This document shows, one piece after another, positions 1-13,938 of a stretch of DNA of 46,316 nt; the first letter of the stretch is position 1; each line of letters starts with the position of its first letter. The notes under the pieces were generated by a model. The model was not told the origin of the DNA. It did no database searches and was given only the letters and a program-made list of their open reading frames with translations. The position numbers were made by a program, and so were the translations under genes. The stretch lies in NCBI GenBank assembly GCA_913046815.1, contig CAJWTE010000001.1:1-46316 (forward strand), written 5' to 3'. This stretch comes from an uncultured bacterium (lineage in GTDB: Bacteria; Patescibacteriota; Minisyncoccia; Phycocordibacterales; UBA918).

Positions 1-328
1 CCGCCCGACAATTGTTTTCTAGATTTTGCTTTCCCGAAAGAAAGCGCCCCGTCTAGAAAATCTAGTTATCGAAATATTGGGACGCTCTAAGTTGGGGGTG
101 TCCAGCGGTGTTCAGATGATTGCATGATCCTGCAAAAAGAATTTGCACCTCATGAACGGGTTGGGCCAAGTGCAGAACTGCGCTTTCAAACGCACTCTTG
201 GCTTATGGTGAGTAGCCGGACGAGGCGGGTTGTTGAGTCGCATGACTGCCTCCTCTCTAGATCTGTACCAGCAGACCTAGTTTCACTATAACTCGTTTAT
301 GTTTTCTTGTTTTTGATAAAAAGTGGAT

Positions 329-367
329 AATCACAAGACCGACAGCACAGCTGTCGGTCTTGTGATT
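329..367 (-). terminator. 18-bp perfect stem-loop next to the orphan tRNA-Val 3' fragment; probably the original tRNA-Val terminator
   Basis: aatcacaagaccgacagc / aca / gctgtcggtcttgtgatt. A T-rich tract follows on the minus strand. Confidence 0.5.
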
Positions 368-387
368 TGTGCGCAATGAGAGACTTG
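367..387. repeat. attL-like core: orphan copy of the tRNA-Val 3' end
   Basis: ttgtgcgcAatgagagacttg matches 5911-5931 (ttgtgcgcGatgagagacttg) at 20/21 positions in direct orientation. Confidence 0.7.
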
Positions 388-763
388 GCGTCCAAATCTA
401 ATTCACTTTGTTCATAAGATTTACCTGCCCGAGAATTTGAATATTTTGCTCTAGGAAAGAAGCAAAATACATACAAATTCTTTTCAAGTCTCTGCGTAAG
501 CAAAATTGTTTGCTTACTCATCATACCCAAATCAAAAACCCGCAAAGCGGGCCTTGATTTGTGCACATAGTAAGACCACGCTTGAACTTTTTGAAAGGGT
601 GGTAAAAGAGCATGATTTACTTCAAGAATGGAATAAGGAAATAAGGGAATTTCTACAACAGGAAAGAAAACAGCCAATAATAAAGGTAACGTATTAGCCG
701 TTATTTTATGCGTCATAGAACAGCATTGATTTAATTGAACTATAGGGGGTAGGAAATGGTAAT

Positions 764-976
764 ATGTCAGGAATGCAACCAGATAAGAAAAAAGACAATC
801 TGACTGACGTAGTTGAACAGGTATCAAAACCAGCGGAAAAACCCGCAACGGTTGGTGATGGGCAGGTTGTATCTGGTGGTGAAGTGGTCACACTTGGTAT
901 TGATGCTGAACTGCAAAAAGATATTGATAAGACCGCCAAAGAAATTGTTAATTTAATCAATAAGAAACGGAAATGA
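764..976 (+). CDS. Hypothetical small protein (70 aa), translationally coupled to the next gene
   Basis: gggggtagg SD-like sequence upstream. The stop overlaps the next start (ATGA at 973-976). No recognisable motif. Confidence 0.45.
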   Translation: MSGMQPDKKKDNLTDVVEQVSKPAEKPATVGDGQVVSGGEVVTLGIDAELQKDIDKTAKEIVNLINKKRK

Positions 977-1698
977 AAATTTTACAGCTGAACACATGGG
1001 GCGGGCGGTTAGGTTCAAAAATCAAAGAAGTTATTAATAGGGAACAGCCAGACATCGTTTGTTTTCAAGAAGCCATAAAGGTTGAGGGCGGAAGTGGTTT
1101 TGTTTTTGATGAATTAAGTGAAATTCAGGAAGATACTGGTTTTGAACATTGTTACTTTTCAGCCAGTTTTGGTTGGAAGTTGATGAAGCGTGAAGCACAA
1201 AGCGGTTTAGCAACTATGAGTAAGTTACCGTTTAGTCACACTGACAATGCTTTTACACGTCTTGAATATATTACTGACTTTGACATTCTTGATACTGACT
1301 ACAACGTGAGAAGCTTACAGCACGTAACCGTTGACTATGACGGTAAACAGGTTCATGTTCTTAATCATCACGGCCATCACGTGCCTAACCATAAAGACGG
1401 TGATGAAGAAACCATGCGCCAGTGTCAGATGATTGTTGACTATCTTGATAAGTTAGATGGTCAAATTGTTTTGTGCGGTGATTTCAACCTAAAACCAGAC
1501 AGTAAATCTTTAGGGCTAATTAACGCTAAATTACTGAATCATGCAAAAGAAAGGGGTGTTTTGACTACCAGAACGCCACTAACACATAAAACAGAAGTTT
1601 GTGATTACATTTTCACCAGTTCAGATATTGAAGTCAAAGATTTTCAGGTACTTGATGACATTGCATCTGACCATAAAGCATTAACTTTAGAGTTTTAG
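973..1698 (+). CDS. Endonuclease/exonuclease/phosphatase (EEP) family metal-dependent hydrolase
   Basis: N-terminal ILQLNTWGG...PDIVCFQE, and C-terminal ...SDHKALTLEF, typical of the EEP fold. Confidence 0.8.
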   Translation: MKILQLNTWGGRLGSKIKEVINREQPDIVCFQEAIKVEGGSGFVFDELSEIQEDTGFEHCYFSASFGWKLMKREAQSGLATMSKLPFSHTDNAFTRLEYITDFDILDTDYNVRSLQHVTVDYDGKQVHVLNHHGHHVPNHKDGDEETMRQCQMIVDYLDKLDGQIVLCGDFNLKPDSKSLGLINAKLLNHAKERGVLTTRTPLTHKTEVCDYIFTSSDIEVKDFQVLDDIASDHKALTLEF

Positions 1699-1699
1699 T

Positions 1700-2356
1700 A
1701 TGGAACACAAAGCAGTCATTGATAAGACAGTAGATTTTGTAAAACAGACCCTTGCAGAAGCAGAAGGTGGTCATGATTGGTGGCACATCTACCGTGTTTG
1801 GAAGAACGCCCAACACATTGCTAAAGCAGAAGGTGATGTTGATGTGTTGGTAGTTGAACTTGGTGCACTATTGCATGACATAGCTGATTCCAAGTTTCAT
1901 GATGGTGATGAAGAAATTGGTCCTAAAACAGCTCGTGATTACCTTACAACTTTAGAACTGCCAGATGATGTGATTGAACATGTAGAAAATATTGTTCGTC
2001 ATATTTCTTTTAAAGGTTCTTTGGAAGGTCAAAAGTGGACATCACCTGAATTATCTGTGGTGCAAGACGCTGACAGGTTAGACGCTATTGGTGCCATTGG
2101 TACCGCTCGCACCTTTAACTATGGTGGCCACAAAGGAAGGGCCTTATATGACCCAAATATTAAGCCAAACTTGGAAATGACCAAGGAAGAATACAAAAAT
2201 AGTACAGCCCCAACCTTGAATCACTTCTATGAAAAGTTGTTGCTGTTGAAAGACCTAATGAATACCAAGGCAGGTAAGGAAATGGCAGAAGGTCGCCACA
2301 AGTTTATGGAACTGTATTTAGAACAGTTCTACGCTGAATGGGAAGGTGAACGGTAA
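1700..2356 (+). CDS. HD-domain phosphohydrolase (YpgQ/YedJ-like)
   Basis: GGHDWWHIYRV..., LLHDIADSKF, VVQDADRLDAIGAIGTARTF. A 1-nt gap separates it from the upstream gene. Confidence 0.8.
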   Translation: MEHKAVIDKTVDFVKQTLAEAEGGHDWWHIYRVWKNAQHIAKAEGDVDVLVVELGALLHDIADSKFHDGDEEIGPKTARDYLTTLELPDDVIEHVENIVRHISFKGSLEGQKWTSPELSVVQDADRLDAIGAIGTARTFNYGGHKGRALYDPNIKPNLEMTKEEYKNSTAPTLNHFYEKLLLLKDLMNTKAGKEMAEGRHKFMELYLEQFYAEWEGER

Positions 2357-2360
2357 ACCT

Positions 2361-2996
2361 TTATTTTTTGGCACTGAACATCTTTAACGAACCATCTTCA
2401 TCAATCACAGCATAATGGTAGTCACTCATGAGTAAGAACGGGGGCTCGCTGTCTTTGTAAGCTAATTTCAGCCGTTCATCTAAATACATCTGCTTAAAGT
2501 GTTCTGAACCCCAATGCGGGACCACGATGGTGTTTGTGAACCGAAAACCCGTGTAATCATCAAGGGTTATACCTTCAGCATCTTCAAGGTAAACAGGAAT
2601 TTTAGGACCCGCAATTATTGAACCAGCACTGGTTCCAATGTATGGCTTACCATTTCGCACTTTTTCAACAATCAAATCAAACGAACCCGTTTCTTGTAGT
2701 TTTTGAAGCAGGTAAATGGTATTACCACCACACATGTAGAGCACATCATACTTATCAAATTCAACTTCAATTTCTTCTTTAGTTTTTCCTGTCACAGTGA
2801 AGCGGTCTACTTGATAACCTTGGTCACGTAGCCCCTTCAGGTCAGCTTGTAGCCAATCATCATCACCTTCAACTTTACCAATTTCAGGTTCTGATGCTGT
2901 ATCAATAAACAAAATTGTTTTGTACCCCTTATCTGATAAACGGTGTTGGTAGATATGGCTTGCCACTGTCGCCACACTTGAAGTAAGAATAATCAT
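2361..2996 (-). CDS. Peptidase S51 (dipeptidase E-like) family protein
   Basis: MCGGNTIYLL, IGTSAGSIIAGP, VPHWGSE: a Ser/His triad context typical of S51. Confidence 0.7.
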   Translation of the reverse strand: MIILTSSVATVASHIYQHRLSDKGYKTILFIDTASEPEIGKVEGDDDWLQADLKGLRDQGYQVDRFTVTGKTKEEIEVEFDKYDVLYMCGGNTIYLLQKLQETGSFDLIVEKVRNGKPYIGTSAGSIIAGPKIPVYLEDAEGITLDDYTGFRFTNTIVVPHWGSEHFKQMYLDERLKLAYKDSEPPFLLMSDYHYAVIDEDGSLKMFSAKK

Positions 2997-3051
2997 TTCG
3001 TCAGTATAGCAAAATCAAGCTAAACAGGTCTATTTTTGGTAAAATAGGGGA

Positions 3052-3933
3052 ATGAATGAACCAATCACTGTAAAGGCGCTTACAGACGCAATGGACACAT
3101 CTGCAAAGATTGCCCAGTCACCTGGTCTGATGACTATTGCTGACCGTCTTTTTGGTTTTAAGTTAAGCGAGTGGAAGGCGCAGGGTGACATTGTAAAAGC
3201 CCAAATGCAACAAGAATACAAAGAAGCCAGTGAAAAGGGGCTTGGCTTTCAATACGTTACTGCCTTTCGTGACAAAGCAAATGTATTGAACACACTTGCT
3301 AAAGCCACAGATTACGTTAAAGAAAACTTTGAACGTGAAATTGAATTTGATGAAGACGTCTTTTGGAACCTGATTGAACATTCCAAAACAATCTCACAAG
3401 AAGAAGTTCAAGATTTAGTTGCAAAGATAATTGCTGGTGAATACAACCAACGGGGAACGTATACAACCCACACCTTACAGGTGCTGAAGTCATTAGGGCG
3501 AGATGAATTAAGCAAGCTTGAAAAGCTTGGTTGTCTGGTGGTCAACACCAACATGATTCCAGTTAACCTGTTTAAGTTAACTGATGGTTATGAAAGTTTT
3601 ATTGAAAGTATTGGAATTAACTTTACTGAATTCCAGACCTTGCAAAGTTTAGGTCTGGTTCATAATAATTCAGCAACAAAAGAAATCAGTAATGATTCAG
3701 GTAAAAAGTTTGCTGTCAGTTACTTTGATAGACAGTTAATATTTGCATCAAATAAGGAAGCTGTTGGAAAAATTCAAATACCAAGCTTTTATCCACTGAC
3801 AGATACTGGTTTGCAACTTCTTCAGCACCTACAACCTTCTGTAAATGAAGCTTACTGTGAATGGTTGAAAGAAAATTACAAAATCGGGAACTATGATTTT
3901 GAAGACGTTATTAACGTTAATTATGCGGGGTAA
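3052..3933 (+). CDS. DUF2806-like protein (phage/Abi-associated family); function unknown
   Basis: The segment LVAKIIAGEYNQRGTYTTHTLQVLKSLGRDELSKLEKLGCLVV resembles the LAGE..PGSFS.RTL..L..L signature of DUF2806, recalled from memory. Confidence 0.45.
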   Translation: MNEPITVKALTDAMDTSAKIAQSPGLMTIADRLFGFKLSEWKAQGDIVKAQMQQEYKEASEKGLGFQYVTAFRDKANVLNTLAKATDYVKENFEREIEFDEDVFWNLIEHSKTISQEEVQDLVAKIIAGEYNQRGTYTTHTLQVLKSLGRDELSKLEKLGCLVVNTNMIPVNLFKLTDGYESFIESIGINFTEFQTLQSLGLVHNNSATKEISNDSGKKFAVSYFDRQLIFASNKEAVGKIQIPSFYPLTDTGLQLLQHLQPSVNEAYCEWLKENYKIGNYDFEDVINVNYAG

Positions 3934-4303
3934 AAAGCGTACAACAGAAGAACAGCACGAACTTTTTGAAGCTATGGAAAGGTATTTAGAAATGGGCTTT
4001 TCAATGAAAAAAGCTTGTGAATTAAGTGATATTCCGTATTCAACCTACCGTGACATTCTGGCTTCTAATGAACGAGTTCGTGCTAAAACCAGGGCACTTC
4101 AGAACTTGGTAAATGTTCAAGCAAGACAAAATATCATCAATAGCATAAGTAAAGGCAACATCAACGATTCCAAGTGGTGGCTGGAACGCATGGACCAAAT
4201 GGAACATTGTACTGACCCTGGTATTGGTGGCCACACTGAATCGTCTACTTCAATAGCAGAAGTGTTGGTTGAAGATTTGTTTAAGGAAACTTCTAAAAGT
4301 TAA
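3923..4303 (+). CDS. Helix-turn-helix protein, small-terminase/RDF-like
   Basis: The internal ATG at 3923 (MRGKKRTTEEQ...) overlaps the upstream stop. HTH segment GFSMKKACELSDIPYSTYRD. A later ...SKWWLERMD resembles the TerS-type N-domain pattern. Confidence 0.45.
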   Translation: MRGKKRTTEEQHELFEAMERYLEMGFSMKKACELSDIPYSTYRDILASNERVRAKTRALQNLVNVQARQNIINSISKGNINDSKWWLERMDQMEHCTDPGIGGHTESSTSIAEVLVEDLFKETSKS

Positions 4304-4305
4304 AT

Positions 4306-5923
4306 ATGAAGATACCTTCTACCCCTGAAGAATTAGTTGAAGCCCTCACACTTGTATCTGAAACCAGTAAAGATGTTGCGCCAGAAGATTTTAGATATGT
4401 TTTGTATGTTCGCAAATCTACTGATGATAAAGACAAACAGGTCCGTTCACTAAAAGACCAGATTGCAGAATGTCGTGAGTTTGCAGAAGACCAGAACATA
4501 AGGGTAGTGAAAATCATTCAGGAATCTGAATCAGCTAAACAACCTGACATCAGGCCAGGGTTTAGAAAGATGCTGGAGGACATCAAGGCAGGTGTATATG
4601 ACGGCATACTTGCTTGGCACCCTGACCGCCTGGCTCGCAACATGAAAGACGCTGGTGAGATTATTGACCTACTTGATAAAGGCATCATCAAGAATCTTAA
4701 ATTCAAAAGTTTCAATTATGAAAATTCATCTGCTGGCAAGATGCACCTTGGTATCACCTTTGTGCTTTCAAAACAGTATTCTGACCATTTAAGTGAAAGT
4801 GTTAGTAGAGGTAACAAACGTAGTGTTGCGGAAGGAAAGTTTTTAAGCACGCCACCACACGGCTATTTTAAGGACCAGGAACAGTTTTTGCGGGCTGATG
4901 GTGATAAATTACATCATCATTAAAAATGCCTTCAGAATGCGACTTGAAGAAAAGACCTTGCAGGCAATAGCTGAATACATTGTTAGTAGTGGTTACAGTA
5001 AGTTGCGAAAAGACGGTACCCGTTACGCACCAAAAATAAATAAACAGACGGTGAAGAAGATAATGTCCAACCCTGTTTATACAGGTGTGCTTTGGTATGG
5101 AAAAAAGAACCCTGTGAATCTTTGTGACCTGTACCCATTTGCACCCATGGTTTCAGTTGAAGAATTCATGAGAATTAACCACCTTACTGAAGCGGGGTTT
5201 GCTGAACTGTCAGGTAGATATGGTGGTAAAGATTCTATTAAGGCGGACCTGATGCGTGACATGGTGATTTGTGATGTCTGTAAAGAATCTATGTCTGCAG
5301 GTATTACACCAAAGAAAACCAAAGATGGTAAAACCAATTATTTTTACTACCGTTGTGATTCACCAGAATGCCCAGTGTATGGAAAGTCCACCCGTGCCAA
5401 AGTGGTTGTTGATTACGTTTGTCACTATCTTGAACAAAAGCCATTTTCATCACGCCAGGCATACACCCACTATGAAAAGGAAATGAAGCGTGTTGCAAAT
5501 GAAAGAATCTTGGAAGCTAAAGGTACTTTGCGTTCACTTAAAGCAAAGTTGAATAACGCCACTGAACGTTATGAAAAAACAAAAATGTTGTTAGTTGATG
5601 GTGATGAAGATATGAAGGAATTCTTCAAAGATGATTTGCGTATGTATGAAAAGCAACGCAAACAAGTTCAGAAAGACATTGCGAAAGTGGAACAAATAAT
5701 TGAAAAGGGGAAGGCCAGCGTTTTGACGTATGAAGAATTCCTTGAACTTATGGAAAAGATGCCTAAAACTATAGCTAAATTAGGTAATATGACTGACTTG
5801 GACTACGTCATCAAAAAAATCTTCTTGAACTTTTCTATTTGTGATAAAAAGGTAATAAAATCAACCCTTAAATCACCCTTTGATAGTTTAGAAACATTGA
5901 ATGTCCCTGGTTGTGCGCGATGA
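4306..5923 (+). pseudogene. Large serine recombinase split into two ORFs (4306..4923 and 4898..5923) by a 1-nt frameshift
   Basis: Resolvase catalytic domain: YVRKSTDDKDKQVRSLKDQ, HPDRLARN. Recombinase and Cys-rich zinc-ribbon region: CDVC...YYRCDSPEC. C-terminal coiled coil. Removing one A from the AAA run at 4906-4908 joins the frames (...ADGDNYIIIKNAF...). Confidence 0.8.
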
Positions 5924-5931
5924 GAGACTTG
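5911..5931. repeat. attR-like core inside the tRNA-Val 3' end
   Basis: Direct repeat of 367-387. It also contains the last codons and stop of the recombinase ORF. Confidence 0.7.
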
Positions 5932-5986
5932 AACTCCCGACCTTCTCGGTGTAAACGAGCTGCTCTACCAACTGAGCTAATCGCGC
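5914..5986 (-). tRNA. tRNA-Val (anticodon TAC), no encoded CCA
   Basis: The reverse complement folds as a 73-nt cloverleaf: acceptor GCGCGAT/ATCGCGC, D arm GCTC-AGTTGGTA-GAGC, anticodon loop TTTACAC, T arm GGGAG-TTCAAGT-CTCTC. Confidence 0.9.
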
Positions 5987-6048
5987 CTATAAATGTAGGG
6001 CACATAGTACTATTTTTTTATTTTTTGGCAATACTGTATATTTCACGT

Positions 6049-6324
6049 ATGCATGAGATACATTGTTATATAAGCGGTTTGGTTCAGATGGTGGCGTATA
6101 GGGCGTATGCACAGGATTCTGCCACTTATTTAGGGATTGCTGGGTGGGTAAGAAACTTGCCAGATGGACGAGTGGAAGTACAAGCTCAGGGCGATAGGGA
6201 AGTGCTTAAAGAATTTATTGAGTATTTAAACGAAGGTTCTTTACTTTCCAAAGTGGAGTCAATAGAGGTAGACTGGGGTACTGCTGGAGAAATATATTCA
6301 GATTTTTCAATTAAGTATGAATGA
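6049..6324 (+). CDS. acyP: Acylphosphatase
   Basis: ISGLVQMVAYRAYAQDSATYLGIAGWVRNLPDGRVEVQAQG matches the acylphosphatase signature. The start was moved to the internal ATG so that it clears the tRNA. Confidence 0.75.
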   Translation: MHEIHCYISGLVQMVAYRAYAQDSATYLGIAGWVRNLPDGRVEVQAQGDREVLKEFIEYLNEGSLLSKVESIEVDWGTAGEIYSDFSIKYE

Positions 6325-7045
6325 AGTAGAAATAATTTTCGAGAACGAAGATTTTTTGGTGATAAACAAACCGGCTGGTTTGTTGGTGCATGAAGACGGG
6401 AATGGCGATGAGACTACTGTCGTGGATTGGTTTTTACAACATTATCCTGATGCAAAAGGAGTGGGTGAACCAAGAATACTCCATGGGAAAGAATTAGAGA
6501 GATCGGGGATAGTGCACCGTTTAGACAAAGATACTTCGGGCATCATGCTGTTGGCACTCAACCAAGATTCATTCGCCAATCTCAAGCAAATATTTCTGGA
6601 CAGAGTAGTAAAGAAAGAGTATCGAGCTATAGTGTATGGAAACATGAAAGACAAGTGGGGGACTATCAATCGCTCAATTGGGCGTAACGCTAAGGACTTT
6701 CGATTGCGTAGTGCTGAACGTGGAGCTAAAGGTACTTTGCGCGAATCTGTTACGGAATGGGAGCAGCTGAAGTGTGGCGAATATCAAGGGGAGAAGTTTG
6801 CTTCACTCAGACTCAGACCAAAGACCGGGCGTATGCATCAGTTGCGTGTACATATGAAAGCGGTAGACCATCCAATAGTAGGGGATAATCTATACGCCGG
6901 AGCTAAGCTCAAACAATCTAACAATCTTGGTATTGAAAGATTAGCTTTACATGCGCATAAGCTACTTTTTGAGCTTAACGGAGAACAATACGATTTCACA
7001 GTGCCTGTACCCAATGATATTGAAGAGGCAGAAAAACTGTTTTAG
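6317..7045 (+). CDS. RluA-family pseudouridine synthase
   Basis: HRLDKDTSG catalytic Asp motif and RMHQLRVH motif. Confidence 0.85.
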   Translation: MNEVEIIFENEDFLVINKPAGLLVHEDGNGDETTVVDWFLQHYPDAKGVGEPRILHGKELERSGIVHRLDKDTSGIMLLALNQDSFANLKQIFLDRVVKKEYRAIVYGNMKDKWGTINRSIGRNAKDFRLRSAERGAKGTLRESVTEWEQLKCGEYQGEKFASLRLRPKTGRMHQLRVHMKAVDHPIVGDNLYAGAKLKQSNNLGIERLALHAHKLLFELNGEQYDFTVPVPNDIEEAEKLF

Positions 7046-7107
7046 TATTGAAAAGGCCCGTACCTTGTGTTAGATTGGGGCACATTTAAAAAACTGAAAA
7101 ACGATTT

Positions 7108-7800
7108 ATGAGTACAAATCTAGCAGGTGTGGCAGTTTCTCCGGTAAATATGGAGGAAAGAAAGAATCTTGGTATTAAAGCCGGTGATACTGTTCGTGTG
7201 CACCAAAAAATTCAAGATAAAGGCAAGACTCGTATCCAGGTGTTTGAAGGACTGGTACTAGCTCGCAAACATGGTAGTGAGCCAGGAGCGACTTTCACTG
7301 TGCGCAAAGTATCTAGTGGTATAGGTGTAGAAAAAATCTACCCACTGTATTCACCAAATATAGATAAGATAGAAATTATTAAGCGTGCTAAAGTACGTCG
7401 AAGCAAGCTTTACTACATCCGGGAGAAAGTCAATCGAGAGATTAAACGTCAGATGCGTCGTATGCACCTGCTGAACCTTTCTACCGAGTCAGAAGCTGAG
7501 GCGGCGACTCGTAAAGAGGCAGAAGCTGCAGAGAAAGCTGCGGCCGAAGCTGCAGAGGAAGTAGTAGTTGATACAGAAACAGAAATTACTCCTGAAACTG
7601 ACGTGGTAGCAGAGAAGGCTGAAGAAGAGATAGCAGAACCTAAAGAGGAAATAGCTACTGAAGAAAAAGATGAAGCTGACGAAGTTAAGGAAGAAGAACA
7701 AACTGAAGCATCTCCAGAAGGAGTAGAAGTAACTAAAGCTAACGAAACAGAAGAAGAGATTGTAGAAGAAATAGAAAAAGAGGAAGGGAAAAAGGAATAG
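7108..7800 (+). CDS. rplS: 50S ribosomal protein L19 with a ~110-aa acidic E/A/K-rich C-terminal extension
   Basis: GDTVRVHQKIQDKGKTRIQVFEGLVLARKHG...FTVRK...GVEKIYPLYSPNIDKIEI is a canonical L19 core. The tail runs from about residue 120. Confidence 0.9.
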   Translation: MSTNLAGVAVSPVNMEERKNLGIKAGDTVRVHQKIQDKGKTRIQVFEGLVLARKHGSEPGATFTVRKVSSGIGVEKIYPLYSPNIDKIEIIKRAKVRRSKLYYIREKVNREIKRQMRRMHLLNLSTESEAEAATRKEAEAAEKAAAEAAEEVVVDTETEITPETDVVAEKAEEEIAEPKEEIATEEKDEADEVKEEEQTEASPEGVEVTKANETEEEIVEEIEKEEGKKE

Positions 7801-7808
7801 CTTCCACG

Positions 7809-7856
7809 ATTCAAGAAAAAGGCCGGGCGCACAGCGCCCGGCCTTTTTCTTGAATC
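7809..7856 (+). terminator. Rho-independent terminator after rplS
   Basis: attcaagaaaaaggccgggcgc-acag-gcgcccggcctttttcttgaat: a GC-rich stem with a U-tract. Confidence 0.7.
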
Positions 7857-7889
7857 GCTCGACACACTAGGGCATAATGACACCCACTT

Positions 7890-7973
7890 GCTCAGGTGGC
7901 GGAATTGGTAGACGCGCATCCTTGAGGGGGATGTGTCCGTATGGACGTGCTGGTTCAACTCCAGTCCTGAGCA
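7890..7973 (+). tRNA. tRNA-Leu (anticodon GAG), long variable arm, no encoded CCA
   Basis: GCTCAGG...GGCGGAATTGGTAGACGCG, anticodon stem-loop CATCC-TTGAGGG-GGATG, variable arm TGTCCGTATGGACG, T arm GCTGG-TTCAACT-CCAGT. Confidence 0.9.
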
Positions 7974-8087
7974 CACTTTTCAAGTTCATTTTTGGTGTCC
8001 TGGTAGTTTTTTGTATTGAAAAAGTGAGTTTTGAGAGTACCATTAGTTTAATGGTTCTTAAGTTCATTCTAGAAATGGGAGGTCAAA

Positions 8088-8789
8088 ATGAAGAGAAGAC
8101 AAGTCTTGACAACGGGTTTGGCTATTTTGGCTTGCCCATATATCTCCAAAGCCAACACGTTACCGAAGTTGGATCTAGTATTGTTGATGGACCGTTCGTC
8201 TAGTCAATATGGATCCAAGATTCACGGAAGCGAGCGAGATCGTTGGCCATACATGATCCAAAAACGCGGTCACATCCTTGGTCTGCAAGACCGATTGGTT
8301 TCTGAAGGTTTGATTACCAACAGGGCTCATGTCCGCCTTATTATTTGGTCTGGGTCGGGGTACAACCAAGAGCTTATTCCCGGTGGCCTGATTGTAAATG
8401 GCATAAAGGATGTTGGGTCACTCGTGGCAGCACTTCAGAATCAAGATGACGACGATGCGTTTGGAGACGGTGACACTGACCATGCTGACATTTTGTATCG
8501 GGTTTTGGACAGGTATCCCAGAATGGCTGATCGGTGGATCATCGACATGTCTACAGATGAACCGCCTCGGTCACCTATTTCTTGCGCTGGTTACAGGGAC
8601 GATATCCAAGACCTATACGGCACGATCAACGGCATCGCTTTTGATCTGGCTGGAAAAGGTGAAGTCGAGGCTGGTCTCAGGGAGTGTGTGAAGTCCAGAG
8701 ATGGTTTTACCGTCAGTGGCCACAATGAAGCCACTTATGTCACGGCTTTGACTTGGAAACTTGCGACAGAGATCGGCGTTGGTGTTTGA
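8088..8789 (+). CDS. DUF1194 (vWA-like) protein with a Tat-type signal
   Basis: MKRRQVLTTGLAILA signal, LDLVLLMDRSSS, IIDMSTDEP, INGIAF, and ...WKLATEI, as in DUF1194. GGGAGG SD 8 nt upstream. Confidence 0.65.
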   Translation: MKRRQVLTTGLAILACPYISKANTLPKLDLVLLMDRSSSQYGSKIHGSERDRWPYMIQKRGHILGLQDRLVSEGLITNRAHVRLIIWSGSGYNQELIPGGLIVNGIKDVGSLVAALQNQDDDDAFGDGDTDHADILYRVLDRYPRMADRWIIDMSTDEPPRSPISCAGYRDDIQDLYGTINGIAFDLAGKGEVEAGLRECVKSRDGFTVSGHNEATYVTALTWKLATEIGVGV

Positions 8790-8799
8790 GGAGAATGGA

Positions 8800-8824
8800 A
8801 AAGGCGGCGCCCTGCGCCGCCTTT
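8800..8824 (+). terminator. Rho-independent terminator
   Basis: aaaggcggcgc-cct-gcgccgccttt. Confidence 0.6.
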
Positions 8825-8850
8825 GATGCGTCTAGGGTATACTCTATATT

Positions 8851-9285
8851 ATGTCGGTTATAAGAGATCAGTCATACGGAGTAGTTCCTGTTTATAGAGA
8901 GGGTGGTGAGAATAAGTTTCTTTTAATACATCAGATTAGTCATCGTGGAGACAAATTTTGGAGCTTTCCAAAAGGACATGGTGAAGGGACTGAGAGCGGG
9001 AGACAGACCGCCCTTAGGGAACTAGAAGAAGAAACTAGCCTATCAGCGGAGCTAGAGTCAAATATTCATTTCGATATTCATTACACTTTTAAGCACGAAG
9101 GTGTACAAATAAACAAAACAGTGACTTATTATTTGGGTTATATAGCTAGCAAAGAGTACAAGATTACCCAACCTCAGGAAATAGCAGAAATTCGCTTCTG
9201 TACCTTTGAAGAGGCAGAACAATTACTTTCACACAAAAATTCACGTTATGTACTTAGGCAAGCTGTTGAATTTTTGACAGATTAA
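8851..9285 (+). CDS. Nudix hydrolase
   Basis: Canonical Nudix box GHGEGTESGRQTALRELEEETSL. Confidence 0.8.
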   Translation: MSVIRDQSYGVVPVYREGGENKFLLIHQISHRGDKFWSFPKGHGEGTESGRQTALRELEEETSLSAELESNIHFDIHYTFKHEGVQINKTVTYYLGYIASKEYKITQPQEIAEIRFCTFEEAEQLLSHKNSRYVLRQAVEFLTD

Positions 9286-12186: not shown

Positions 12187-12328
12187 TATTTCGAACAGAA
12201 GCCAGTCTTAGCTCTTGCAGATCATTTTACACACTGGGCAAAATGGCATCCAATGCATGAAGCCAGTCAGCAACACTGCTAGGCCAGTGAGAGATTCAAA
12301 CTCTGGCCATGAGCTGTTTAGCATCAGG

Positions 12329-12435
12329 GGAAATGGGGTCAGACACCATTAAATCTAAAAAGGTGTGGTGTAATAATCTTACATTAAAACACCCCAAAAA
12401 GGGAATGTTTTGATTTGTTGATGGGGCGACTACCG
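12329..12435. repeat. Left copy of the ~108-bp direct repeat (tRNA-His 3' end plus trailer)
   Basis: Aligns with 13769-13876 at a 1440-nt offset, with 3 substitutions and 1 indel. It ends in tggggcgactaccg, a diverged copy of the tRNA-His 3' 14 nt. Confidence 0.85.
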
Positions 12436-12540
12436 ACCCTCGGGTGGAACCAATTGGAAGAGTTGTGTCTTGAATGGTTAAGCGACGCAAGGGTTTGTTT
12501 CGGGTGATAGGGCAGAAAGTGGTTCCACTGGGCCGGTAGG

Positions 12541-12578
12541 GAAAAGAAAAAGCCACCCGCCCAATAAGGGAGGATGGC
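12541..12578 (-). terminator. Terminator of the GC-rich cassette
   Basis: On the minus strand, GCCAUCC-13 nt-GGGUGGC is followed by UUUUUCUUUUC, 23 nt after the exonuclease stop. Confidence 0.5.
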
Positions 12579-12600
12579 AGTTGTGCAAGCCGATTGTTCT

Positions 12601-13155
12601 TCAGGAAATCTTCAGACCATCCTGAATCATCTTGGCGAAGGCCCCGGCGTTGCCCCGAGTGTCTTCGAGGGCGTCGTGGGTGTGCGCTTCGGTTCGGAAC
12701 TCTTCCCACGCATCACGGCTTCCGTAGAGGCCGAGCGACAGGCACGGAATATTTCGTCCAGCATAGCCAAACGGATTCTTGCTGCGATAGCGGTGGAAGT
12801 AGGTGTGGACGAAGCCCCAGTCGAACGCCAGATTGTCGGCGACGAAAATCGGCTTCGATGCTCCGTTGTCGTCCAGAGTGATTCGGATGAAGTGCTGAAG
12901 CTTCTGCATCGCAATTACCGGTTTGAGCAGGTCGTCTCGTTGCATCCAAAGCTCCGGAGTGAACCCCAGGTCACGCTGGAGGAAATCCAGTGTGTCGGGG
13001 TCATGTTGGTCCGTCGAGAAGGCCAGGTTGCAGGACATACCCTGCAGTACTGTACCGTCAGCCAGGACGGGCACCGTCGCCATCTGATACATGTTGTGGA
13101 TTGCGAACGCCGGACCGGTGGTCTCAGTGTCCGTCACAAAGTAGACTTTTGACAT
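12601..13155 (-). CDS. DEDDh-type 3'-5' exonuclease (DnaQ/DexA-like)
   Basis: Exo I FVTDTETTG, Exo II FVADNLAFDWGF, Exo III HTHDALEDT. The start is set at the ATG at 13155, preceded by GGAAGGAG. Confidence 0.8.
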   Translation of the reverse strand: MSKVYFVTDTETTGPAFAIHNMYQMATVPVLADGTVLQGMSCNLAFSTDQHDPDTLDFLQRDLGFTPELWMQRDDLLKPVIAMQKLQHFIRITLDDNGASKPIFVADNLAFDWGFVHTYFHRYRSKNPFGYAGRNIPCLSLGLYGSRDAWEEFRTEAHTHDALEDTRGNAGAFAKMIQDGLKIS

Positions 13156-13156
13156 C

Positions 13157-13543
13157 TCATTCTCCTTCCGTTTCGTTACGATAGCTGGCTTTGTAGCCGA
13201 GGTTGGCAAGTTCAAGCTCAACCGAAAGACTTACGAGTACCCCTTCGTTCCAGTCGAGGAGCCTTCGGCAGCCGTCATGGATGAGCTCAGTTCGTTGCTG
13301 GTGATTCTTCACACGTTCAGGGAAATTGTGAGCCCTGAAGTGAACGTTGATGTCGGGGGCATTGATGTCCTCTTCATCGCCAGCCTGAAGCCTGACAATC
13401 ACTTCTTTTTCAGTGACACCACCTTCGTGACGAGGCGCACCTTCAACGTTAAGGTGTGGGGCGGCAAGTCGTGGCAACGCTTCAGCGAGAACGAGGGCAA
13501 ACAGCCGATTTTCCTTTGAATAAGTGAGTATTGCAGTGGGCAC
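13157..13543 (-). CDS. 128-aa protein with N-terminal Met-Pro; possibly tautomerase-superfamily-like
   Basis: GTG start with AGGAG 7 nt upstream. A duplicated beta-alpha-beta-like pattern (MPTAILTYS..., ...DINVHFRAHNF...). The TGA stop lies 1 nt before the exonuclease ATG. Confidence 0.5.
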   Translation of the reverse strand: MPTAILTYSKENRLFALVLAEALPRLAAPHLNVEGAPRHEGGVTEKEVIVRLQAGDEEDINAPDINVHFRAHNFPERVKNHQQRTELIHDGCRRLLDWNEGVLVSLSVELELANLGYKASYRNETEGE

Positions 13544-13768: not shown

Positions 13769-13876
13769 GGAAATGGGGTCAGACACCATTAAATCTAAAA
13801 AGGTGTGGTGTAATAATCTTACATCAAAACACCCCGAAAAGGGGAATGTTTTGATTTGTTGATGGGGCGGCTACCG
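13769..13876. repeat. Right copy of the ~108-bp direct repeat, overlapping the intact tRNA-His 3' end
   Basis: See 12329-12435. This copy keeps the better CCCC-gaaaa-GGGG trailer hairpin. Confidence 0.85.
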
Positions 13877-13938
13877 GGAATCGAACCCGAATTTCCGGTA
13901 CCACAAACCGGCGTAATGACCGTTATACAATAGCCGCC
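13863..13938 (-). tRNA. tRNA-His (anticodon GTG) with encoded G-1 and CCA
   Basis: The reverse complement is G-1 + GCGGCTA...CCGGT-TTGTGGT-ACCGG...TCGGG-TTCGATT-CCCGG-TAGCCGC-C-CCA. The G-1:C73 pair is the His identity element. Confidence 0.9.

Follow-up and report, generated by a model that had tools for sequence, protein, structure and literature searches.

We studied a 46,316-nt contig of an uncultured patescibacterium (GenBank assembly GCA_913046815.1, contig CAJWTE010000001.1, positions 1 to 46,316 of the forward strand; this whole stretch is the window) and, within it, a gene for a large serine recombinase (LSR) next to a tRNA-Val(TAC) gene. We conclude, with a probability of roughly 0.8, that window positions 559 to 5916 form a 5,352-bp integrative mini-element, which was put at the extreme 3' end of tRNA-Val by its own LSR, using an attachment site (attP) located within the LSR gene, and which arrived after an older unit of ~190 nt that trails the tRNA. 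An earlier note on this DNA had likewise proposed an LSR-bearing element inserted at the 3' end of tRNA-Val, and the Resolvase and Recombinase domains support this together with the anatomy of the attachment (att) sites. However, the 21-mer direct repeat that it had taken for attL and attR gives way here to junctions at 559 to 564 and 5911 to 5916, which share TTGTGC only. Its view of the host as similar to the candidate phyla radiation agrees with the flanking RluA, whose closest named relatives are Paceibacterota and Kaiserbacteria.

The LSR gene (4306 to 5923, plus strand) is broken by a frameshift into two open reading frames (ORFs). The first (4306 to 4923) encodes the Resolvase domain (PF00239, 87 to 90 bits), and the second (4898 to 5923) encodes the Recombinase domain (PF07508, 39 to 40 bits; cut-off, 21.1). 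According to the alignment with two sister elements, L004 and L005, the lesion is a 1-nt insertion (AAA for AA) at about positions 4908 to 4910. Identical sequence with the same split LSR was found in GCA_002708195.1 (contig PAMK01000008.1; L001/L003) and in the Tara scaffold L002, and since three assemblies share the frameshift, it is real. The R-K-S motif of the resolvase domain, invariant in a 35-sequence alignment, reads YVRKST in the window protein, which also has the CxxC...CxxxxC cysteines of a zinc ribbon. The repaired protein has more than 2,500 homologues, the best of which are intact Patescibacteria proteins of ~540 aa with a Zn-ribbon domain; the relatives P0001, P0002, and P0045 are likewise intact. 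By its predicted domains and the logic of its att sites, the window enzyme is a bona fide LSR.

The position of attP was deduced from the C terminus of the enzyme. At the left end of the element, positions 560 to 697 (plus strand) hold the displaced 3' end of the LSR gene, which encodes a conserved tail of ~43 aa (..CAHSKTTLELFERVVKEHDLLQEWNKEIREFLQQERKQPIIKVTY*). Indeed, the peptide encoded by 566 to 694 is homologous to the C-terminal tail of the uninterrupted, 577-aa LSR P0045 (blastp E 2e-7). P0045 is encoded on a 4,929-nt contig (L086) that contains no tRNA and whose ends overlap by 30 nt (k-1), in keeping with a circle, and the backbone genes of L086 follow the same order as in the window, namely, a helix-turn-helix (HTH) protein, the LSR with its tail, and a small ORF with the motif KKDNLTD. 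We read this contig as the putative excised, circular attP form of such an element. Tail fragments on the LSR strand were also present at the left ends of elements of ~2.8 to 8.5 kb in L004, L005, L006, L007, L009, L016, L031, and L037, so that a tail fragment stands at attL in nine loci, the window included. A hidden Markov model of the tail detected none outside the closer subfamily, except for a weak match in L052. Because the displaced tails sit at the left ends of elements and the L086 gene is uninterrupted, attP is predicted to lie inside the 3' end of the LSR ORF. At the other end of the element, the ORF stops at 5923, and its last three codons (C-A-R) and stop are the antisense of the tRNA-Val 3' end. 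The earlier note was thus right that the stop lies inside the 21-mer repeat, while it had counted four such codons instead of three.

Comparison of attL and attR placed the core TTGTGC at 559 to 564 and again at 5911 to 5916 (both read on the plus strand). At attL, the B arm lies to the left of the core, and the P' arm (565 to 587, plus strand) lies to its right and contains a YGAAC box at 582 to 587, 17 nt from the core. At attR, the intact tRNA-Val (5913 to 5986, minus strand) provides the B' arm, where the T-loop box TTGAAC (5929 to 5934) is 12 nt from the core. The same anatomy was found in all of the six attL/attR pairs that we compared: the two sites have only 4 to 7 nt in common, at the CCA/discriminator end, and this core (TTGTGC in the window, TGGTGC in L007, GTGGGC in L006, and TGGCGG in L009) corresponds, in antisense, to the CCA or pseudo-CCA together with the discriminator and the first bases of the acceptor. 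In 6/6 pairs, the distance between the core and the YGAAC box, which is the antisense of the T-loop sequence GTTCRA, was 17 (or 15) nt in P' and 12 (or 10) nt in the tRNA arm, as counted by hand for L009; the P' distance thus exceeds the B' distance by a constant 5 bp. No clear motif was seen in the P and B arms, and the 5-bp shift refers to the P' and B' arms only.

This arrangement is in good agreement with the work of Rutherford et al. (PMC3783163) on the LI integrase, in which the motif bound by the zinc-ribbon domain occupies bp 16 to 24 of the half-site in attP and bp 11 to 19 in attB. Judged from the sequences, the displacement of the YGAAC box is the published attP/attB signature of LSRs, and the T-loop box is probably read by the zinc-ribbon domain. 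By the LI half-site numbering, the crossover would fall at or beside the last bases of the core. Altogether, the displaced LSR tail, the circular relative with its uninterrupted gene, and the 5-bp motif shift fix the left end of the element at 559 to 564. With its crossover at the discriminator end, the insertion requires no regeneration of the tRNA, contrary to what the earlier note had supposed.

The chromosomal context of the element could be followed in relatives. In L001 to L003, the left flank, which the window lacks, consists of RuvX, a tRNA-binding protein, VTT, a PilM operon, tRNA-Arg(TCT), and ~430 nt, followed by a hairpin and an orphan tRNA fragment. L224, whose RluA is 67% identical, shows full synteny and a tRNA-Val identical to that of the window but lacks an LSR, the sequence at its site being terminator-GCCGATC-TGTGC-GCGATGAG. 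In the majority of 80 metagenomic relatives, tRNA-Arg and tRNA-Val are present with no LSR, separated by as little as 61 nt (in L119), and the larger gaps of the LSR-free relatives contained ordinary host genes and no integrase. The empty tRNA-Val sites that the earlier note had suggested looking for therefore exist in relatives. Conversely, L004 and L005 have sister elements at this tRNA-Arg to tRNA-Val locus, with intact LSRs (81% and 77% identical to the window enzyme, respectively) and different cargo. Between the window and L004, the element genes are 91% (HD hydrolase), 87% (HTH protein), 79 to 85% (LSR), and 80% (DUF2806 protein) identical, with a lower value for the 70-aa ORF (66%), while the flanking host genes are 28 to 61% identical, with the exception of ribosomal protein L19 (81%).

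We then asked how widely the association with tRNA genes holds in the LSR family. A family-alignment scan of species-representative genomes returned 599 matching stretches; all but two (597) encode a relative, and we retained 80 loci. In 54 of the 69 loci with sufficient downstream sequence, the LSR gene and a tRNA gene converge, with their 3' ends abutting or overlapping, and 23 tRNA species are represented; 7 of the 15 exceptions come from other phyla and are distantly homologous. In 50 LSR loci, long direct repeats of the tRNA end 5' of the LSR were mostly absent or rare, as expected for serine recombinases. A scan of IMG/VR with the LSR gave only two matches at 37% identity or more, both moderately related, and the family is thus not mainly a phage integrase. 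One tentative reading of these data is that the family reads features common to all tRNA genes, namely, the CCA/discriminator end and the T-loop box, and so could hop among at least 23 tRNA species. In the same reading, a switch of directionality or stability would be built into the enzyme, operated by the swap of its C-terminal tail upon integration.

The 21-mer itself is genuine. Its left copy, TTGTGCGCAATGAGAGACTTG, is at 367 to 387 and its right copy, TTGTGCGCGATGAGAGACTTG, at 5911 to 5931, in direct orientation and with 20/21 identity, as the earlier note had reported; the 46-kb window contains no further match at up to three mismatches, and 0/100 shuffles had any match. It also holds that the right copy is the 3' part of the intact minus-strand tRNA-Val (ARAGORN, 5913 to 5986; Rfam tRNA, 67 bits) and that the left copy is an orphan tRNA fragment adjoining a perfect 18-bp hairpin (arms 329 to 346 and 350 to 367). 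However, when the LSR element is conceptually excised, the repeat grows to 25 nt (24/25; 363 to 387 versus 555 to 564 plus 5917 to 5931) and flanks positions 388 to 554. On this sequence evidence, the left copy represents the 3' terminus of an older and separate unit of ~190 nt (363 to 554) and not an att site of the LSR, and the 21-mer brackets a composite of two insertions. The unit is the older of the two because the LSR element was inserted between the tRNA and the terminator of the unit (T1).

This trailing unit, X2, has a defined architecture. Read in tRNA sense, tRNA-Val is followed by a hairpin with a T-run (T1, 534 to 555), a degenerate mimic of the acceptor 5' strand (518 to 528), a small conserved hairpin (496 to 517), the complement of the T-stem 3' strand and T-loop (483 to 496, where the window carries the sense copy), a core (388 to 482), the orphan tRNA copy, and the old terminator. 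The body (388 to 554, minus strand) was delimited by alignment with the Val units of L094, L096, L145, and L100. The orphan copy (363 to 387, minus strand), segment "a" of X2, includes the left 21-mer and extends from the middle of the T-loop to the discriminator plus 7 nt. The hairpin behind it (T0, 329 to 367, minus strand; perfect 18-bp arms and a 3-nt loop) is the original terminator of tRNA-Val, and at other loci the older terminator likewise follows the orphan fragments. Gene callers have placed here a 139-aa ORF that covers the trailing unit together with the hairpin and the orphan fragment (L001 8598 to 9017, equal to window 297 to 716, minus strand), which is almost certainly spurious.

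In the Patescibacteria loci examined, 50 of 315 tRNA genes are trailed by the same architecture, including genes at sites free of the LSR (L224 and L090). After leaving out three that lie within other tRNAs, we obtained 47 nonredundant units, which measure ~130 to 370 nt from the tRNA end to the orphan end (median, 191 nt); further examples are located at 2326 to 2534 and 3640 to 3865 in L004, 2400 to 3080 in L005, 4560 to 5620 in L007, 2070 to 3650 in L070, and 8370 to 8580 in L224. The scaffold of terminator, hairpin, and core is near-identical at different tRNAs of one genome (~93% between the Arg and Val units of L004), and the match of the three tRNA-derived segments is always to the local tRNA. 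In 26/47 units, the internal complement of the orphan exceeded all 40 shuffles. The window unit folds on the tRNA-sense strand with a z-score of -4.6, and a seven-sequence consensus keeps the closing stem and the inner hairpins, with compensatory changes in 15/38 pairs. In Rfam, the window gave only tRNA matches at the gathering threshold, and E-value scans of the units of L004, L094, L097, and L101 were empty. The type-A core motif GACAACCTGTACTGA had 21 matches in viral contigs, all of them chance matches in coding DNA.

Several candidate identities of the unit were tried and rejected: it is not a retroviral-type primer-binding site, as its complement lacks CCA; it is not a tmRNA, since ARAGORN finds none and the topology differs; and it is not a remnant of the LSR P' arm, to which it shows no sequence similarity. 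As in tRNA-like structures (the tRNA-like domain of tmRNA or the viral TLS), the closing helix of the unit copies the acceptor and T stems, but a structured insert occupies the position of the T-loop. Like miniature inverted-repeat transposable elements (MITEs) and PATEs, the units are short, noncoding, and multicopy, with structured cores; unlike these, they have no transposase and no target-site duplication of normal size. They differ from both groups in that the target-matching segments vary from copy to copy while the scaffold is kept, and in having no Rfam match. The pattern could be read as that of a tRNA-minihelix-mimic RNA processed by tRNA maturation enzymes, or as templated or guided retargeting. 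Whether the units form a new class of noncoding mobile or structured element, of a genuinely new kind, is a tentative idea to which we give less than even odds.

Three other explanations of the locus were weighed. The earlier note had the element run from 388 to 5931, with the 21-mer as the attL/attR core made by insertion into the T-loop and regeneration of the tRNA 3' end. The repeat does exist and is nonrandom, and the geometry is that of a classical tRNA-integrating island. However, the homology between the window and L004 elements begins at GTGCACATAGTAAGACC (window 561) and not at 388, and L005 has a sister element, with the same LSR, at the same tRNA-Val and no tRNA-end repeat; neither in L004 nor in L005 was a copy of the local tRNA-Val 3' end found at up to 9 mismatches in 30 nt. 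Furthermore, the orphan and unit structures occur at LSR-free sites (L224 and L090) and behind 50/315 tRNAs, while the junction is set at 559 to 564 by the LSR tail, by the circular relative, and by the 5-bp motif shift. The L005 locus is of the kind that the earlier note had named as evidence against its own proposal, and the 21-mer is ruled out as the att site; we regard this explanation as highly improbable. We consider it quite improbable, too, that the LSR and its neighbors are a vertically inherited locus beside tRNA-Val, domesticated or decaying, whose cargo differences reflect local gene turnover. The presence of the LSR at the same locus in three related genomes would fit such an origin, as would the frameshift of the window copy and the lack of any excision product for the window species, but most syntenic relatives have no LSR, the element genes are far closer between hosts than the flanking genes are, a circular family member exists, and the LSR family abuts 23 tRNA species in many lineages.

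The third explanation concerns only the unit at 363 to 554, which would be the eroded attL end of an earlier tyrosine-integrase island whose interior has been deleted. The orphan does end in the T-loop, reportedly a classical crossover position of tyrosine integrases, and tandem arrays of units resemble successive integrations. An eroded end is nevertheless difficult to reconcile with the constant short size of the units (median, 191 nt), with their conserved cores, hairpins, and terminators, with internal complements of the local tRNA end that exceed all shuffles in 26/47 units, or with copies that are ~93% identical at different tRNAs of one genome, and the neighboring intervals contain no integrase genes. 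We therefore hold this origin of the unit to be unlikely.

Some observations weigh against the reading that we prefer, in which the LSR inserted its own element at the tRNA end through an attP in its own gene. The conservation of ribosomal protein L19 (81 to 88%) equals that of the element genes, so that the argument from divergence rests on the other flanking genes. Neither a circular junction nor an empty site was seen for the exact species, the empty sites coming from relatives with RluA 60 to 67% identical, and the circularity of L086 rests solely on its k-1 terminal overlap. The domain search that the earlier note had proposed for the repaired ORF recovered Resolvase and Recombinase, but the Zn-ribbon (PF13408) of the window protein is below threshold (E 0.034, 15 bits versus a cut-off of 25.3); the same model scores 32 bits in P0045 and is carried by most family members. 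In L004, the LSR stands 630 bp from tRNA-Val and continues through an attP-like junction. Finally, the shared core has just 6 nt, from which we infer the exact crossover dinucleotide, and a role of the tail swap in directionality or stability is likewise inferred.

We propose the following course of events. The element would have entered by recombination between attP and attB, catalyzed by its own LSR, with the extreme 3' end of tRNA-Val as attB. Crossover would take place within TTGTGC, a sequence that covers, in antisense, the last acceptor base, the discriminator, and two bases beyond, and would leave the tRNA intact, while the tRNA acceptor and T-arm would serve as the B' half-site. Integration would swap the conserved ~43-aa C-terminal tail of the LSR for three tRNA-encoded residues (CAR-stop), and the tail-coding piece would stay behind at attL. 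The point of insertion would be between tRNA-Val and terminator T1 of the trailing unit. Later, the LSR would have acquired its 1-nt frameshift in the window genome. Because of this frameshift, the window LSR is probably a pseudogene and the copy of the element probably fixed and immobile.

Within the element, we distinguish a backbone, made up of the LSR tail remnant, a 70-aa ORF, a TerS-like HTH protein, and the LSR, from a cargo of four intact genes. The 70-aa ORF (764 to 976, plus strand) carries the KKDNLTD motif, is 63 to 66% identical in L004 and L005, and has a homologue immediately 3' of the LSR in the circular relative L086; scans of Pfam, PHROGs, PADLOC, and NCBIfam gave no family match for it. 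The HTH protein (3923 to 4303, plus strand; 126 aa) always lies just 5' of the LSR and matches the terminase small subunit family phrog_4102 (E 8e-7). Its identity is 79 to 87% in L004 and L005, and its L086 homologue (150 aa) matches phrog_2538. We consider it a candidate directionality factor or regulator. The cargo consists of an endonuclease/exonuclease/phosphatase (EEP)-family protein (973 to 1698, plus strand; PF03372, E 4.5e-19), a YedJ-like HD phosphohydrolase (1700 to 2356, plus strand; PF01966, E 2e-13) that is 91% identical to its L004 copy and matches NF007515 with an E value of 5.5e-30, under the curated cut-off, a Peptidase_S51-family protein (2361 to 2996, minus strand; PF03575, E 6.9e-29), and a DUF2806 protein (3052 to 3933, plus strand; PF10987, E 1.5e-16) that also occurs in the L004 element, with 80% identity. 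The gene labels of the earlier note, which were these four and a TerS/RDF-like HTH protein, thus hold in the Pfam, PHROGs, and NCBIfam scans.

Cargo differs among the elements: nucleotide hydrolases and a peptidase in the window, a deaminase and a NUDIX protein in L004, and a methyltransferase and an HTH/M78 protein in L005. PADLOC detected no anti-phage defense match among the window cargo. The cargo of L086 is an AriA/OLD-like ATPase (PADLOC AriA, E 8e-24) and a 188-aa partner, and because of this pair, some mini-elements of the LSR family appear, by predicted gene content, to ferry defense-like cargo. Searches of PHROGs, Pfam, and NCBIfam gave no replication or structural matches for the element genes, apart from the weak TerS-like HTH match, and no tyrosine integrase gene was found in window positions 1 to 9000. 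The earlier note had suggested a satellite-like or cargo-only element. The element is indeed small and cargo-only, but a phage satellite of the PICI or P4 type was rejected, as there are no genes for replication, packaging redirection, or capsid remodeling except the weakly TerS-like HTH gene, and as the family is rare in IMG/VR.

Other features of the region were noted along the way. The intact LSR of L004, P0001, continues through its attP-like junction (L004 8870 to 9545), where GGTGC is followed by GCCATGTGGGACGACGTTAGAAC, and encodes ..TTLERF*; two small minus-strand ORFs lie between this gene and tRNA-Val. The junction may be the remnant of a tandem or second element. L225 (positions 1 to 1230), the closest relative by RluA (76%), has a different LSR C terminus (..KNVSGVR*) that overlaps tRNA-Val, and an extra gene for a 202-aa protein is present between its tRNA-Val and acylphosphatase genes. 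In L140 (9000 to 9060) and L090 (600 to 690), duplicated fragments of the 5' part of tRNA-Arg(TCT) are found on the 5' side of the gene, unlike the 3' orphans. The start of the window (1 to 24; L001 8278 to 8325) falls within a perfect inverted repeat with arms of ~22 nt (GAAAACAATTGTCGGGCGGCC..GGCCGCCCGACAATTGTTTTC), which has tRNA-Arg on one side and the tRNA-Val terminator on the other, and assembly probably accounts for the contig break at this point. The small ORFs of window positions 1 to 328 showed no conservation in L004 or L224. Downstream of the element, ribosomal protein L19 (7108 to 7800) has a C-terminal extension of ~100 aa rich in Glu, Ala, and Lys. Finally, positions 12250 to 13500 have a G+C content of 52 to 57%, compared with 40 to 45% around them, adjoin tRNA-His (13863 to 13937), and contain ORFs without a Pfam match; this could be another inserted segment.

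The element combines traits of several known systems. With the integrases of A118 (LI), Bxb1, phiC31, and SPbeta (SprA), its LSR family shares the domain order Resolvase, Recombinase, and Zn-ribbon and a short common core, and, as in phage-type LSRs generally, a small DNA-binding partner gene lies beside the recombinase gene. To our knowledge, LSRs described so far target protein-coding or intergenic sites, not tRNA ends, and we know of no phage-type LSR whose attP lies within the integrase ORF. Unlike phage-type LSRs, the present family resides on elements of 3 to 8.5 kb without phage genes and is rare in IMG/VR. The half-site motif shifted by 5 bp between attP and attB is a further point in common with the phage-type enzymes (PMC3783163).

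In its layout, the element resembles the tyrosine recombinase systems in which the integrase gene itself is the site of recombination, without being a member of that group. The Myxococcus phage Mx8 has its attP inside the integrase gene (IntP/IntX) and a tRNA target. SSV1-type archaeal integrases, which are covered in a review (PMC8371274), likewise have attP in the integrase gene and a tRNA target. Similarly, integration of the window element into the tRNA gene alters the integrase ORF, which is restored in the circular relative L086. However, those enzymes are tyrosine recombinases with long tRNA-derived cores, whereas the window element has a serine recombinase, a swap of a ~43-aa tail, and a core of 4 to 7 nt. 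Classical tRNA islands and prophages also use the tRNA 3' region as attB and have their integrase gene beside the tRNA; the window element differs in lacking a tyrosine integrase, in leaving no long direct repeat of the LSR's making, and in having its crossover at the discriminator/CCA. Williams is said to have defined, in 2002, sublocation classes of tyrosine integrases in tRNA genes, with the T-loop as a classical crossover position.

Among serine recombinases, the Ccr enzymes of SCCmec cassettes are LSRs that act at the 3' end of rlmH, and the filamentous phage phiRSM has a small, resolvase-size serine recombinase at tRNA-Ser. The window element is like SCCmec in being a small, nonreplicative cargo carrier at the 3' end of a conserved housekeeping gene, placed there by a serine recombinase, and phiRSM is a precedent for the use of a tRNA 3' end by a serine recombinase. 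Unlike SCCmec and phiRSM, it belongs to a different LSR lineage and host phylum, and we know of no ORF-spanning attP in either of them. In our search of the literature, whose coverage was incomplete, neither tRNA-end-targeting LSRs in Patescibacteria nor an ORF-spanning LSR attP turned up, and the same holds for the trailing units; a preprint on the Charybdis element proved unrelated.

Large serine integrases are prized as genome-engineering tools. Here, a natural LSR family (at least 597 encoding stretches and more than 2,500 proteins) would use the invariant 3' end of tRNA genes as attB and a site in its own ORF as attP. The 5-bp-shifted T-loop box gives testable rules for half-site recognition, and the ORF-embedded attP suggests a possible design for a self-regulating integrase. 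The mobile elements of Patescibacteria are poorly charted, and the elements described here would represent a simple vehicle, composed of an LSR, an HTH protein, a small ORF, and one to five cargo genes, some of them defense-like, that moves genes between the reduced genomes of this phylum. The trailing units, which stand behind about one tRNA gene in six at the loci examined and are now misannotated as ORFs, may be a new noncoding element.

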